Assembly (NCBI GenBank): GCA_045837725.1
Contig: JBEWZL010000204.1
Coordinates: forward strand, 1 to 64,000
DNA: 64,000 nucleotides
Reading direction: 5' to 3'
Source of the DNA: Vermamoeba vermiformis
Lineage: Eukaryota
The position numbers were made by a program, and so were the translations under genes. This document shows positions 3,001 through 19,600 of the stretch, piece by piece. Each line of letters opens with the position of its first letter. The stretch's first letter is position 1. Under the pieces are notes generated by a model. The model saw only the letters and a list, made by a program, of their open reading frames with translations. It ran no database searches and had not been told where the DNA came from.

Positions 3001-3618
3001 TTCTGAGTTGCGTTTCCACGTCCAACAACTCACGCAACACAAACTTGTTCACAACCATGCCATTCACTTCATCGAGTTTATCGGCACGGACCATAGCCAA
3101 AACAGTGGCGTATCTGAAAGAAGAAGTAAGTTTAAGGAAATTATTGCAGATTCAGACCCCGATCTAGCTTGTAAAAATTCAAAACGCTACGTCAATCCGT
3201 ATTTACGCTACAAACTTGGTAGATATCGGAGTAATGATTTAAAATATTTTTTTGCCACCTTTGCAAACAAAAAAAGGGCACATCTGCATTTTGAAGCTTT
3301 ACCGCGTCTAACAAATATCTAATACTCTTACCCATAGAAAGGCCCGTAAATTGATTCATATTGGCCCTTATATTCCGTCCAAATCGAATCGGTCGCTGAC
3401 CATTGTGGTTCTTGGTTGGTTTCGAGTCGAAAGTTGATGAAACCAAGAGCGCAAGAGCAACAAATCAACACCGAGATGATAATGACCTTGATTGGATGCC
3501 TTGACGATAAAATTGCAAGCTTCGAGAAGTAAGTCGTGAGAGCTCGTTGAATAACGTTCTGATCTCGATCAAGATCCATTTCCATTGAGCCAGATTCAGA
3601 GTCGTCCAATAACATCAT
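1..3618 (-). CDS. NPC1/Patched-family sterol-sensing-domain (RND-type) membrane protein, copy A; multi-exon, 3' end runs off the window edge
   Basis: Spliced exons give RHPIKVIIISVLICCSCALGFINFRLETN, the SSD motif LPVLLLGIGVDNIYVL...TGPSIMLSAIS, FNALSVINVAATFALGVEYISHI and C-terminal FAGLHALIFIPIILSIYEE (NPC1-like HGLIFLPVLLS). ATG at 3616-3618; the frame is still open at position 1. Confidence 0.9.
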
Positions 3619-10090: not shown

Positions 10091-13000
10091 ATGCAGTTAG
10101 AGTGGAGTTCTGACTCTGAATCCGGCATTATGGGAAAAGATCTCGAGCCTACAAACGAAAGTCAGAACATTATTCAACGCGCTCTCACGACTTACTTCTC
10201 GAAGCTTGCAATTTTATCGTCAAGGCATCCAATCAAAGTCATTGTAATATCGGTGTTGATTTGTTGCTCTTGTGCTCTTGGTTTCAGCAACTTTCGACTC
10301 GAAACCAACCAAGAACCACAATGGACGGCGATTAATTCAATTTGGTCGGATTATCAAAAGCAATATGAAGCAATTTATGGACCCTTCTACGGGTAAGATA
10401 TCGTTAGATGGAAAAACGGATTTAACAGATCCAGATTTCGGTTTAGCATTTTTTAAAATTTGAAATTTATGCATTAATCTAAACAAAACATTGCTGCATT
10501 TTTATGCAAATGTCAAATTAAGAATTTAAAATTTTTACAAGGAAGATCAAAGTGCGAATCCGCAATATTTTCCTTAGACTTACTTCTTCTTTCAGATACG
10601 CCACTGTTTTGGCTATGGTCCGTGCCGATAAACTCGATGAAGTGAATGGCATGGTTGTGAACAAGTTTGTGTTGCGTGAGTTGTTGGACGTGGAAACGCA
10701 ACTCAGAAAAATAACTGTCAATACAACGGATGGTAATCAAATAGATTCAATACAATAGGTAACTTGTTAGTAACAATAATATCACAGGCATGAAGTCGAC
10801 TGAAGAGTTGTGCTTGCATCCAGCAGGTCCCGAAGGTAAAAAACTATTTCTCGCAGCGCTTCATTTATAACTCATTCATTGTTTATTATATTAGAGCCGT
10901 GTATGGTAACAAGCATATGGTGGCATTGGAACTACTCGTTGAGCAAGATGGAATCAGATCCAGTGATCCTTTCAACTGTTGCTCGTTCTGGTTTCACACA
11001 TCCACTCGGTTTTACCATGCCTCGTATGAAACTATACTTTCCGCTCATGACATATTCTAATATGCGTGATGCTTCACAGCTTCAACATTCTTGGGAGGAT
11101 TCGAAGTGAAATACGGTCGAGTGGTGACAGCACGAGTGATCAAAACACAATTCATTTTCGCAACTCGTTTGGACTACCAAGATGCACTCACACAACTGTA
11201 CAACAAGATTGAAGAGACAGTGCTTGAGATGAACAAGACTGCAGTGTACTCATCGTTCTTTGTCGAGACTTCCGTAAGTAAATCGCTCGTTCACTGAACC
11301 ACAGTTTCACTGAATCATTCGTTCACTGAAAAACACTGACATTGTTCACGATAGACGTCAGTGACACGATCTTTGGAAGAGACACTGCTGACAGAGATGT
11401 GGCCAGTGTTCGTTGGTGTGCTTCTTCTGCTCGTGTTTGTTGTGCTGACACTCGGTCAGTTCTCTCGTGTTCATTCGAAAGTGGCACTTGGTTTCTTTGG
11501 CATGTTCACAATCTTGTTGAGTTTTGTCGTGACATTCGGTCTTGCAAGGTACGCACAAATAGTATTTGTTCGAACACGTGTCTCACGTTCAACTCAGTGC
11601 ATTTGGCATCATGATCAGCACCACCGTGCTTCAAACACTTCCAGTATTGCTGCTCGGCATTGGTGTGGACAACATCTACGTGCTGTCAAAAGCATTCACG
11701 CAAGAGTTCATGAACGACAACGATATCGATGCAGCTCTCAATCGAACGTGAGTACCTTCGAACAAATAGGCAGGCGTATGAGTATACTAACATGTTCAAC
11801 CATTCAAGATTGAACAAGACGGGACCATCGATCATGCTGTCAGCAATCTCAGTTGTGGTTGTGTTCTTGTCAGGACTGTTCATCGACATTCCAGTGATCC
11901 AAGCAATCTGTGCTGAAACGATCATTGCCATTGTGACCAATCATTTCTTGCAAACAATCACATTCTCATCTGCAATGGTGCTTGATGCACGAAGAATCAA
12001 AGTACATTTGTTCAAGATCGATTTACACGTGTCAACATGTCATTAATATTTTTCATTCCTCACTGTAGGCTGGTCGAATAGACTGCTGCTGCACTATCAA
12101 AGCGAAGAAATCGAGTTCAATGGATGAGAAGAGCGACGAGTCAAGTGCCAAACAAACGATCAAACGAAAGACAAAGAAGTGCACCAAGAATGCCATCCCC
12201 AATGCACTGATTGCCATGTCAACCAATCGAACCTCTCAAATCATCTTTGTAAGCCAATTTGTTATCGAATCTAATCGTTCTAATCTCGTGCAAACAGATC
12301 GTTGTATTCGTTGGGTACTTTGCATTCAACATCTTTGCCACGACACAAATCACAGAAGGACTCGAAATCTCATCACTCATGGCCAAAAACACACCAATTA
12401 GACGATACACGGACATATCTAATCAGTACTTTGGCAACACGTAAGTTGATTTGTTTGTGTTTTGCGAAGTCGAATTAATCGATTTTATTTCGGATCAGAC
12501 TGCCGTTCTTCATTGTTTATCCTCAACTCGACTTCACCAATCCAAACACAAGTAAAATGCTCATCGATCATCACAAACTGATGCAGGTACAGAACATAAC
12601 AAAAAATATCGCTTTATCATCAGATCCGCTAACACGATATTTGTTACCTCAGGCGAGTGGCTCAATCTCATCGCTGACAAGTTGGCACTTCAATTTCTTG
12701 TCGTGGGTGATCTTGTTGAGCAATCATTCGTCAGAGTACCTTGCCAATCAGAATCAAATACCATCGGACAAGTTCTATTTATGGCTGCACGAGTTCTTGA
12801 ATGAAATTGGCAAAGCTCATCGTGGTGACTTGATCTTTGATGAGAATGGCTTCATTAAGGTTCGTGAGTCGTGTGATCGTGCATGAAATTTTTTATCAAT
12901 TTTATTTTACGCTGAAAAAATTGAAAAAAGAATGCAATAGTGATTAGCGACATATCAAACCCTAGTTTTGCTAACGTTCGTTAATTTTGCAGTGGTCTCG

Positions 13001-16652: not shown

Positions 16653-19600
16653 TTATTTTTGTGACGCAAGAGCGCGGCAATCACGAGCACGAATTAAATC
16701 ATCGAGCTCTTCTTTGAGAAGTGACTGCAACACCTTCTCTTTGTCCGCATCCAGCTCCGAAAGTAATTGCTTGACACGCTCGATCAATGCAGGCTCTTCA
16801 GGGTAGAATGGGAAGAACTATAATACAATGGGGTAAGTTGATGTAAAGAAGTACGTTTGTAGCGGATGTATCTCGATCGATCAGATCGCAAAAAAATTCC
16901 GTGGTGGAGTTATTCGACTTACGGAGCTAAAGAAGGCATTGGCGAATTCTTTTTCTCTGTTCTTGAATACATTTCGCACGTTAGCAAAGAACAGGTCAGT
17001 ATATTGTCGCAATAATTCGTCTTGGTGTTCCCAACGGAATCCGCTCATTTCTGCAACCACCTCATTAGCTCATCTTCCTAAAAACCGTGTATAATATTAC
17101 TCACCAGCTTCTAATTGCCAAACAGAAACACCTTCGCATTGTTGGGTGCTCAAGAATCGTTCCCAAGCCCGCTGTTTGACAGCTGCGTCCCATCGAGAAA
17201 ACTCCGCTGTACGCACCATACGATCTCCGACATCACTAAGACAGTATGAGATTAGTATTGCATAACATATTGAAAGCAATTACACGTGTCTAATAGGTAC
17301 CTGTTATCGCGTGCCTTCTCCTTCTGGAGAAGTTGGCTAGCAGATTCGACCGACCAAGCAACAGCACGAACAACAATACGCCATCTGTGCGTTTGATTGA
17401 ATGCGTAGTGCGCGCTAGGCTTGCCTTCGTGTTTTTCTAAGACTTCAACGAGCTTCAAAACACTTTGCTTGGATTCAGCGAAGCTGATCAAGTTATCTAC
17501 GTAAAGTAATCATGTTAGCAAACTAAAATAATCATTCTTTGTTAGTACAATTTGTGTTAATTAATAATGTGCCGTAATAAGCCACGACTAGTCCTTAAAA
17601 GTATCGATCTGAATATCAATATTGACTGCATCCACAAAAAGCAAAAAGAAAGTGATTGCGTATCGCGCATCCTGCGGCAAAGACTACCAGACCTGCGTCG
17701 CAGGCCCAGTAGCCTTAAGTCCGAAGTATAGAAGTTTTCTTTGTGGTGTGGTAGTTTTTTTGACTCATTGATGAACAACAATAATAATAAACGATGAAGC
17801 GCGGTTACAGGGCACCTTCTCAAAAAATGTAGTGTAGAACAAAGCACTTTGTTTTGGGCCACATGTTTGTTTACGAAAAATTATGGTATTAAGCACCACC
17901 CACAAAAATAAAGAATCAATCTCGGAATTAAAAATTTTGTGGGTGAAACTGAGTAAAATAATTCACTTGTTTTGTACGTTTAATAAGGCGCCTGAAAGAG
18001 AGAAAAAATAACGATTTTTTTTGTACTAAAGATCGCGAACCAAAATTTTTGAAGATTTGCTCGGATTTTGGTTAAAAAAAAAAGGTAGTAGGCCCGGGTG
18101 CGAGTTACACGCACATCCACTCGAATTATCCTCTTCAAACATATAAGTTGTTGGAATCACCTAAGTGACAGACGAGGGGGCTATTATTGCCCAACGCAGG
18201 CCTACGTCCCGACAAGAGCCAAATTTGTGGCTTAACTGCAACCACTAAAATCTGATTGCTAATTGTTATGGTTCTCGTTGGAGGCAGCATCGCGAACGCG
18301 TAAATTTGTGGACAGAAATATTTGAGAAAATTGAAGGGTTTGTTGCGCGAGGATGATATGCTTGCACTTACCAGCCCAAATGATCTGGAAGTCCTTGTCC
18401 GTGGCAGTTTGAATTTGAGTCCAGCAGAAATCGAACAATTTGTCCGAGTAAGTCTCGTGCAAGGCACGCGGCATGAAAGTCGTAGCTGCAACGCTGCATC
18501 GGCGCATAACAGCTTGTACGAGCTTAGAGTCTGTTTCTTTGCCCAATTGGCTCAAGACCTGCACGTAAAGGGAGTTAGTTAGGTCCGGGTAACGATCGAA
18601 TCTGGCGTCAAATCCGCTTTGGTTTGTTTTGCGTTAATAGATCGTACTATCGGTTATAATATTTGCAAAACAACCGCATCAAGATAAGGGCATTGGTTAC
18701 GTACCAGATCCACGTAGTTAGTGCTCTTCAACTTGCAGTCGCGAACCATCACGTAGAACGAAGCCCACAACAATTGTCGCAACAAATCGTCTTCGAATTC
18801 GTTCAAATGAGCACGAACAAATGCCTCAGACTTTTCGTCCAACAAACACTTGGCGAATCCGTGGTCGTTGTAGTTAATGTACACGAAGGCAGGTTCAGTT
18901 TCACCAGCCAATACAGAGAGCTCAGTATCGACTTGTGGCAGCACATCAATCTCGTACTTCTTGCGCAAGGTAACCTTGCTGTTGTTGTAGTCGAATAACG
19001 AGACCTCTAAGTGGTGCTTGCGAAGAGTCGGATGTTCGGTGGGTGCGGTCTAAAAGTGATTGAAAACGTTGATTAGAATACGCAGTACTATACAATAAGA
19101 TTATAAGACTTACTTGATGCACGCAGAACTTGTGGATCTTGCCGTGCTGGCACTCGAACACTGGATTCAAAGTGTTAAGTCCAGCAGTCTGCAGCCACTC
19201 CTTTGACCATTCGTGAGCGTTGAACACTCCCTTTCGACCACTTTCAACAGCACCGTGCTCAAGAGCCTCCAAAAAGTCCTAGCGAGTTCAAAAAAAATGA
19301 GCAAAAGTCACGTGTCGCGGCTGCACATCCGCTACTTACTCCAATAGTGGTGTTCTTCCATTGATATTTCTTGAAGTAGTATACCATGCCGAGCTTGAAG
19401 CCTTGCACGCCAACAATGCTCACCAGTTGTTTCAACAAAGAAGCACCTTTGCCGTAAGTAATTCCGTCAAAGTTCAACAAGGTCTGATCTGTGTCAGCGA
19501 CTTCTCCTTGAATGGGATGGGTAGTGCTCAATTGATCCTCACTAATATTATGATATTGTTAGTGTACAAAAGCTTGCCATTAAGAGAGCACGAAATCACT

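Follow-up and report, generated by a model that had tools for sequence, protein, structure and literature searches.

In Dictyostelium discoideum, many non-coding RNA (ncRNA) genes carry the Dictyostelium upstream sequence element (DUSE), [AT]CCCA[AT]AA, about 63 bp upstream (PMC3188802). A further paper reports that the element has just two Cs in some dictyostelid groups, that it serves RNA polymerase II (Pol II) genes as well as those of RNA polymerase III (Pol III), and that its describers did not expect it outside the Dictyostelia (PMC7919456). The same paper states that the RNAs of such genes begin with G and that Class I RNA genes have T-runs downstream (PMC7919456); the Class I RNAs are 42-65 nt long, with a short terminal stem and an 11-12-nt motif containing CCTTACAG by the 5' stem (PMC7919456, PMC3188802). 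In Caenorhabditis elegans, intronic ncRNA genes carrying upstream motifs of their own are known; the likeness to the locus considered here lies in the gene arrangement alone, the organism, the motifs and the RNA families being unrelated. Vault and Y RNAs are about 90-140 nt long and multi-copy, with paired and conserved ends, a variable centre and a terminal U-run. The locus considered here lies in a 64,000-nt stretch of DNA (hereafter the window) from contig JBEWZL010000204.1 of Vermamoeba vermiformis (assembly GCA_045837725.1), in which a preliminary description had noticed a structured, cloverleaf-like island inside the long intron of a pepN gene. The sequence, the location and the minus-strand orientation of the island are as described there. 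Our analysis indicates, with a probability of about 0.72, that the island (RNA 1) is a small ncRNA gene which belongs to a new family and is transcribed independently, and that it has a companion of this kind (RNA 2) in the same intron.

The fold of RNA 1 by itself is only moderately above chance; the main support is taken from homologues. Metagenome contigs were scanned once for a 21-nt pattern belonging to the 3' part of RNA 1, which gave four loci (L001-L004). L002, located in GC-rich coding sequence, was dropped as a chance match, and the other three contain full-length RNA 1, with 84-87% identity to the window copy. L001 and L003 are near-identical to each other and were counted as one locus, so that there are three independent loci, including L004 and the window. 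A single metagenome record set is the source of both L001 and L004, which may represent two loci of one organism. A model built from the homologues (R1) scored 154-156 bits for L001, L003 and L004, and 141.5 bits for the window copy. The body of the RNA is conserved apart from an AU-rich centre of about 30 nt (alignments A1 and A5). The flanks do not align across loci, and neither do the 55-57 nt separating the RNA from an upstream motif, CCAYAAYAA, which starts at -66 in the window (CCATAACAA), at -64 in L001 and L003 (CCACAACAA), and at -66 in L004 (CCACAATAA). Downstream, a T-run of 9-11 starts 4-5 nt past the terminal stem in all three independent loci, so that the U-tract pointed out in the preliminary description (T10 in the window) is both terminator-like and conserved. 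A conserved RNA with a motif at a fixed distance and a T-run, set in diverged flanks, indicates an independently transcribed gene under selection rather than copies of a mobile element.

The contexts in which RNA 1 is found are unrelated to each other. In L004, it lies inside an intron of about 338 nt (GTAAGT ... TAG), sense to an acyl-CoA-oxidase-like gene (Pfam matches to Acyl-CoA_ox_N, 5.9e-5, and Acyl-CoA_dh_M, 1.7e-4, both under the curated cut-offs). In L001/L003, it is apparently intergenic, between a plus-strand open reading frame (ORF) and the 3' end of a convergent, minus-strand RRM-containing gene, and no aminopeptidase exons were found near it in these contigs. The intronic location in the window is thus incidental, or at most a preference. 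No second copy of RNA 1 was found in the 64-kb window at up to 3 mismatches, and the R1 model, run with filters off on the window and the three contigs, recovered no further copy, the best other match being antisense and scoring 18.5 bits. Pattern scans of viral and genome contig collections gave 0 matches.

The arrangement of motif, RNA and T-run resembles that of the dictyostelid DUSE genes. For a DUSE-type gene, CC(C)AYAA would lie about 60-63 nt upstream; the motif is found at -64 to -66 in all four RNA 1 sequences and at -65 in all three RNA 2 sequences. Common to this locus and the dictyostelid genes are a CC(C)AYAA-type motif about 60-65 nt from a transcript starting with G, a T-run after the gene, a dispersed multi-copy occurrence, ends joined by a short stem, and a conserved word by the 5' stem with the rest variable. 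RNA 1 differs from the Class I RNAs in its length (120 nt compared to 42-65), in having four or five helices instead of one stem, and in lacking CCTTACAG, a word absent from all four RNA 1 and all three RNA 2 sequences. In the window, CCAYAAY is accompanied by a T-run within 230 nt at 17 sites, amongst which RNA 1 and RNA 2 alone stand out; the site that came closest after them, at 10316, was rejected, being a coding exon that is duplicated. Past the T-run of RNA 1, the window (18062-18073, minus strand) and L001 (1265-1290) have AACCAAMATCCG in common.

In the window, the minus strand of the RNA 1 island contains a closing stem (GUAGGCCUG/CGGGCCUAC), a GGGC-AAUAAUA-GCCC hairpin, a CCUC...GAGG arm and a GUGCG-UGUAACU-CGCAC hairpin; after the last hairpin and the closing stem come UA, CC, and then T10 (18083-18074). 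The fold as first drawn is exactly the minimum free energy (MFE) structure given by RNAfold (-41.0 kcal/mol, z = -2.94, with 2 of 200 dinucleotide shuffles as good). The plus strand folds worse (-36.0 kcal/mol, z = -2.19, equalled or bettered by 5 of 200 shuffles), and one U.G pair in the 9-bp closing stem exists only on the minus strand, as had been claimed, the plus strand having C.A in its place. The z-scores obtained for the RNA 1 fold were -2.84 (window span 18086-18205), -2.01 and -3.43.

Comparison of the four sequences gives a consensus of 27 pairs, which are 99.1% paired, compared to 35-47% when the 3' partners are slid by 1-3 columns. The terminal stem P1 has six invariant pairs (positions 1-6 with 113-118), and its 9-bp form (18197-18205 with 18088-18096) is present in the MFE structures of the window and L004. 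Of the closing stem proposed in the preliminary description, only the outermost 6 bp are thus invariant; its inner three pairs are doubtful, because pair 7-112, C-G in the window, is U-G in L004 and a C.A mismatch in L001/L003. The CCUC/GAGG arm is present in the MFE structure of the window and absent from all homologues. The CUGUCA stretch, taken at first for an anticodon-like element, is not conserved as such and turned out to be the 5' strand of the conserved 6-bp hairpin P3 and not a loop. In P2, both partners of pair 10-33 differ between the window (C-G) and the three other sequences (U-A), and pair 37-50 of P3 alternates between G.U and A-U. The hairpin of the variable arm is UUUGAA/UUCGAG in the window and CGAAUU/AAUUCG in L004 when the folds are constrained.

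The terminal stem is followed by a linker of 2 nt, P2, a linker of 1 nt, P3, the long variable arm, and P4, which abuts the 3' strand of the terminal stem. This is the branch order seen in tRNAs with a long variable arm, and "cloverleaf-like" is therefore a fair description of the layout, although RNA 1 has none of the identity features of a tRNA. It has in common with the class II tRNAs the order and spacing of the helices, and a 7-nt P4 loop whose first nucleotide is U and whose fifth is A. It differs from them in carrying a UUCG-type tetraloop in place of the anticodon loop, in a D-like loop without GG, in a T-like loop which is not TPsiC, and in its length of 120 nt.

Two raw RNA-seq runs (X21 and X23), whose species label is that of the best-matching DNA, were compared with the region 17400-18470. 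The 79 (X21) and 34 (X23) reads in this region are concentrated on the two RNA islands and not on the remaining intron. Summed depth is about 38 in X21 and 19 in X23 over 18084-18119, and about 2-8 over 18120-18205; it reaches up to about 20 in X21 over 17616-17831, and is zero over 17832-18047 and 18228-18371. P4 is the deepest-covered stretch of RNA 1. The reads also define ends. A poly(A) junction is found exactly at 18086, after ...CCUACUA, in 22 reads from X21 and 20 from X23, and another at 17644, after the fourth U of the RNA 2 U-run, in 5 reads. Polyadenylated small nuclear RNAs (snRNAs) have reportedly been found in Dictyostelium. In addition, four reads of X21, with two different starts, contain a joint at which the 3' end of RNA 1 (18086) abuts its 5' end (18205). 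This joint could come from a circle, a genomic dimer or template switching by reverse transcriptase; whichever of these applies, the RNA 1 ends that it marks are those given by the terminal stem and by the poly(A) site. The expressed copies have the same 5' and 3' parts and a different centre, to which loose ends at 18127 and 18158 correspond. Position 38 (18168) is changed from U to C in all 11 reads covering it, and in our own reading of the consensus adjoining 18158 (9 reads, agreement 0.76), which has G at position 49, this would be part of a compensatory change of pair 38-49 from U-A to C-G.

RNA 2, which was overlooked in the preliminary description, sits 265 nt downstream of RNA 1. A blastn comparison aligns positions 1467-1640 of L001 with 17823-17644 of the window at 76% identity, at a similar distance from RNA 1 and in the same orientation, and the sequence is also present in L003; its homologues thus come from contigs that were found with the RNA 1 pattern only. 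RNA 2 is 172 nt long in L001, where the terminal T-run is T4. The gap between the CCATAAT motif and the RNA is 58 nt in the window, L001 and L003, which represent two independent loci. The fold has z-scores of -4.33 (window) and -3.91 (L001), which none of 200 shuffles equalled, and the same architecture in both, namely a long interrupted terminal helix joining invariant 5' and 3' blocks, and an interior made up of a variable region of about 55 nt, an invariant ACAAAGAAAACU and a 17-bp hairpin. Seven pairs of this hairpin differ between the window and L001/L003, two by changes on both sides and five by one-sided changes, and all of them remain paired.

Two likenesses between RNA 1 and RNA 2 were also observed. 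The word GUGC-(2-3 nt)-UGUAAC-(1 nt)-CGC occurs in both RNA 1 (18098-18114, minus strand) and RNA 2 (17801-17815, minus strand). It forms the UGUAACU-loop hairpin in the former and is part of the 5' strand of the terminal helix in the latter, and could be either a common protein site or the product of chance. The 5' end of RNA 1, AGGCCUGCG (18197-18204, minus strand), is similar to the hairpin of RNA 2 in its 5' arm, GGGCCUGCG (17700-17708, minus strand), and the two corresponding segments in L001/L004 are likewise alike (UAGGCUUG); common descent or intermolecular pairing may account for this. Full-length RNAduplex predictions for the two RNAs gave just long unspecific duplexes, which are not evidence of an interaction. 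After RNA 2, L001 contains a third T-run (T13) with AAACCAAAT at 1685-1706, with no RNA 1-like match upstream of it. The coordinates of the features are collected in Table 1.

Table 1. Features of the two RNA genes and of the intron containing them, in window coordinates.
Feature	Position	Strand	Remarks
RNA 1, structured small RNA	18086..18205	minus	120 nt; 5' G at 18205, 3' ...CCUACUA at 18086
DUSE-like motif CCATAACAA	18263..18271	minus	Starts 66 nt ahead of the 5' G of RNA 1
P1, 5' strand	18200..18205	minus	Partner 18088-18093; 6/6 pairs invariant in 4/4 sequences
P2, GYG/CRU helix around the GGGC-AAUAAUA-GCCC hairpin	18172..18197	minus	Pair 10-33 changed, 6 others invariant
P3, 6-bp hairpin	18155..18170	minus	Loop UUAG (window), UUCG (others)
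AU-rich variable centre	18120..18154	minus	3' part pairs with invariant AAUUCG (hairpin P3b)
P4, UGG/CCG and GUGCG-UGUAACU-CGCAC hairpin	18095..18119	minus	T-arm-like place; 8/8 pairs invariant in 4/4 sequences
T10 run, Pol III-type terminator-like	18074..18083	minus	Directly after the CC beyond RNA 1
RNA 2, structured small RNA	17644..17821	minus	About 178 nt; GAGAAGGUG at 17821 to ...CACUUUCUUUU at 17644
CCATAAT motif (in TACCATAAT)	17880..17886	minus	Starts 65 nt ahead of the first G of RNA 2
Long hairpin of RNA 2	17680..17716	minus	17 bp, loop GAC; 17 pairs, 100% paired in 3 sequences
T5 run, terminator-like	17643..17647	minus	End of RNA 2; T4 in L001
Host intron, M1 aminopeptidase gene	17497..18371	minus	875 nt; spliced RNA contigs

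Neither RNA could be assigned to a described family. A search of the whole window at the Rfam gathering scores gave 0 matches, and ARAGORN found 0 tRNA genes in the window, L001, L003 and L004. With the threshold relaxed to E<=10, five weak Rfam matches were obtained in 17400-18450 and three in L001 and L004. One of them, to mir-1206 at L004 1675-1728, was rejected, having 24 bits compared to a gathering score of 70 and overlapping the first 14 nt of RNA 1 only; the others overlap neither RNA 1 nor RNA 2. There was no match at E<=10 to tRNA, including selenocysteine tRNA, and the P3 loop has 4 nt (UUAG or UUCG) and is not a 7-nt anticodon loop. The 5S rRNA model matched neither the window at its gathering score nor 17400-18450, L001 and L004 at E<=10. 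At the latter threshold, neither RNA matched the Y_RNA family, and the vault RNA family was likewise not matched, although this miss is weak evidence, as the model is mostly animal. No C (RUGAUGA) or D (CUGA) box is present in any copy, the sole ACA, which the window copy has at position 55, does not occur in the homologues, and there is no small nucleolar RNA (snoRNA) match on either RNA. Self-cleaving ribozymes (hammerhead, twister, hepatitis delta virus-like and others) gave no match at E<=10, and the CUGANGA core is absent. The same applies to the U1, U2, U4, U5, U6 and minor snRNAs, for which no match was found at E<=10, and both RNAs lack an Sm-like site and ACAGAGA. Readings of short shared words as U6/U6atac-like, signal recognition particle Alu-like, telomerase-RNA-like or 5S-like were considered and dropped, with no Rfam match to any of them. 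Three characteristic 15-20-mers of both RNAs, in DNA and RNA spelling, had no match in the papers searched, and a topic search found no such RNAs. The suggestion that the island is a structured RNA outside the known families is thus in agreement with the negative Rfam and ARAGORN results, the homologues and the RNA reads.

A number of observations weigh against RNA 1 being a gene of this kind. The reads are 90-99% alike to the window, and 76 of the 79 in X21 and all 34 in X23 align with it only partly. Variants occur amongst them, such as C>T at 18094 in 22 of 39 and 5 of 20 reads, as well as at 18107 and 18109 and in the form of an inserted C. In view of this divergence, their source is paralogous copies and/or another strain, and not demonstrably the copy in the window. 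The libraries are also cDNA libraries with poly(A) reads, which cannot reveal the main non-adenylated species or its size. As to the structure, pair 7-112 is mismatched in L001/L003, and the window copy favours a non-conserved fold by 5.2 kcal/mol (-41.0 compared to -35.8 for the consensus) because of its private CCUC/GAGG arm. Covariation is not significant for either RNA, shuffles doing as well as the alignment in 119 of 500 cases for RNA 1 and in 48 of 500 for RNA 2, which is due to there being just three independent genomic copies; the covariation check called for at the outset therefore yielded some compensatory change, and a shuffle control that is not significant with four sequences. 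The invariance of most pairs is uninformative either way. The motif ACCAYAAY is not enriched in the window (12 matches, 8.4 expected), so that its fixed position is what matters. Its naming after DUSE reflects likeness and not proven homology. Finally, two of the three loci are intronic and sense-oriented, which gives some room for dependence on the host transcript.

All reads over the host exon (17400-17471, both runs) show five fixed differences, at 17429, 17432, 17448, 17457 and 17466, and diverge before 17415; their source is a different strain or a paralogue of the aminopeptidase gene.

Some of these features could also be expected of a short mobile element, be it a tRNA-derived short interspersed element (SINE), a miniature inverted-repeat transposable element (MITE) with terminal inverted repeats of 6-9 bp, or a retrozyme-like element, with the reads coming from its other copies. 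The family is multi-copy, with the several variants listed above, poly(A) follows the 3' end in the reads and one head-to-tail joint is found, the terminal stem is readable as inverted repeats, and the branch order is tRNA-like. We nevertheless consider this origin improbable. All three genomic loci have a T-run in the place of an A-tail, no target-site duplication was seen by eye, and a promoter motif fixed at -64 to -66 with unrelated sequence in between is not expected of a retroposed or transposed copy. Furthermore, neither the window nor the three contigs contain a second copy, and the ribozyme search described above was negative.

Slightly less probable again is that RNA 1, like a snoRNA or a stable intronic RNA, is a product of the splicing of the host pre-mRNA and of exonucleolytic trimming, having no promoter of its own. 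The terminal stem could stop exonucleases, and the intronic, sense position in two of the three independent loci would suit such an origin, but the copy in L001/L003 lies between convergent ORFs with no recognisable intron, and the C/D boxes and a conserved H/ACA arrangement are missing. The conserved upstream motif and the T-run would be left without a role, and the host exons are covered far less than the RNA 1 island in the RNA runs. It is very unlikely that RNA 1 is a decayed tRNA or 5S rRNA pseudogene, kept by chance and with no function of its own: its size, terminal helix and T-run are reminiscent of 5S rRNA and its branch order of a tRNA with a long variable arm, but neither ARAGORN nor the Rfam tRNA and 5S models recognised it in the searches above, the 84-87% identity is limited to the RNA with diverged flanks, and the compensated pairs point to selection on the fold. 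That the island is a cis-acting structure regulating the splicing of the aminopeptidase intron, as its place in a long intron and its fold on the sense strand might suggest, is hardly credible with the same element present in unrelated contexts, and the observation of spliced aminopeptidase RNA speaks neither for nor against it.

Of the three options raised in the preliminary description, a novel Pol III ncRNA is the one that fits best, while processing from the intron and regulation of splicing do not agree with the finding of the same RNA and motif in an unrelated intron (L004) and in an apparently intergenic position (L001/L003). For an independently transcribed RNA 1, transcription would begin at G18205, guided by the DUSE-like CCAYAAYAA beginning about 65 nt upstream, and would terminate in the T10 run, as Pol III transcription would. 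We infer both the polymerase and the start site, the start of RNA 1 being backed by the joint at 18205. Pol III appears somewhat likelier than Pol II, because of the T-runs and of the end of RNA 2 within its U-run. The transcript would fold into a cloverleaf-like junction of several branches with a terminal stem of 6-9 bp. In it, P2 would resemble a D-arm and P4, with the UGUAACU loop, a T-arm; between these would lie P3, capped by UUCG, and a long variable arm, rich in AU, that includes a small hairpin. The 3' end of the transcript would then be trimmed to two nt past the terminal stem, and part of the pool would be polyadenylated. RNA 2 would be another gene built on this plan, both genes being simply nested in the intron in sense orientation.

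With regard to function, RNA 1 might be a scaffold for a stable ribonucleoprotein (RNP), similar to vault or Y RNAs, with the conserved ends binding protein and the middle free to vary; this is a weak guess by analogy. The likeness to vault and Y RNAs is one of design only (terminal stem, conserved ends, variable middle, U-run and multiple copies), and the two RNAs differ from them in that neither matches any Rfam family at E<=10. We know of no amoebozoan vault RNA sequence. Major vault proteins do exist in Amoebozoa (PMC12547018). A wider and more speculative proposal, which we regard as doubtful, is that RNA 1 and RNA 2 form a linked, abundant and probably Pol III-made pair defining two new RNP classes in Amoebozoa, RNA 1 being tRNA-shaped with a tetraloop for the anticodon and RNA 2 long-stemmed and Y-like. 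Either could then be the RNA partner of the amoebozoan vaults or of a Ro/La-type protein, the shared GUGC..UGUAAC..CGC word could be their common protein site, the DUSE system would extend beyond the dictyostelids, and, in view of the head-to-tail joint, RNA 1 could occur as a circle too.

Few small-RNA families are known in amoebae besides Dictyostelium, and the locus adds two candidates with defined ends. If the motif at -65 is a true relative of DUSE, the combination of motif, T-run and fold would provide a key for ncRNA searches across Amoebozoa, and the promoter system would be older than its describers expected. For annotation purposes, the two islands are neither repeats to be masked nor exons, and the length of the intron would be explained by the genes nested in it and not by the biology of the intron.

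The intron itself is as described at first: the joint 17496|18372 is present in two spliced RNA contigs (runs X6 and X13), and the borders are GT..AG on the minus strand (CT..AC on the plus strand). With their promoters and the spacer counted, RNA 1 and RNA 2 span about 630 of its 875 nt (18271 to 17643), and these two nested genes would account for its unusual length. The host gene codes for an M1 aminopeptidase, its upstream exons matching Peptidase_M1_N (2.2e-7), Peptidase_M1 (6.8e-12) and ERAP1_C (2.9e-8). The product of the exon at 19259-19558 (minus strand) is a pepN protein of bacterial type, with top named matches to proteins from Chloroflexi/Dehalococcoidia and from the amoebozoan Pelomyxa schiedti. 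The latter is the closest named eukaryotic relative for this exon (53% identity), and the other matches are unnamed protist transcripts and many bacterial pepN proteins. The aminopeptidase gene may thus represent an old transfer into amoebae.

The GC content of the window, about 43%, and its abundant introns are unlike those of Dictyostelium, and its four longest ORFs matched no Pfam family. The window also contains an inverted duplicate of a coding exon, with a GTAAGA splice site at its end, at 3225-3435 (minus strand) and 10290-10500 (plus strand). The two copies are about 90% alike over the first 110 nt or so, which indicates two paralogous genes in opposite orientation.

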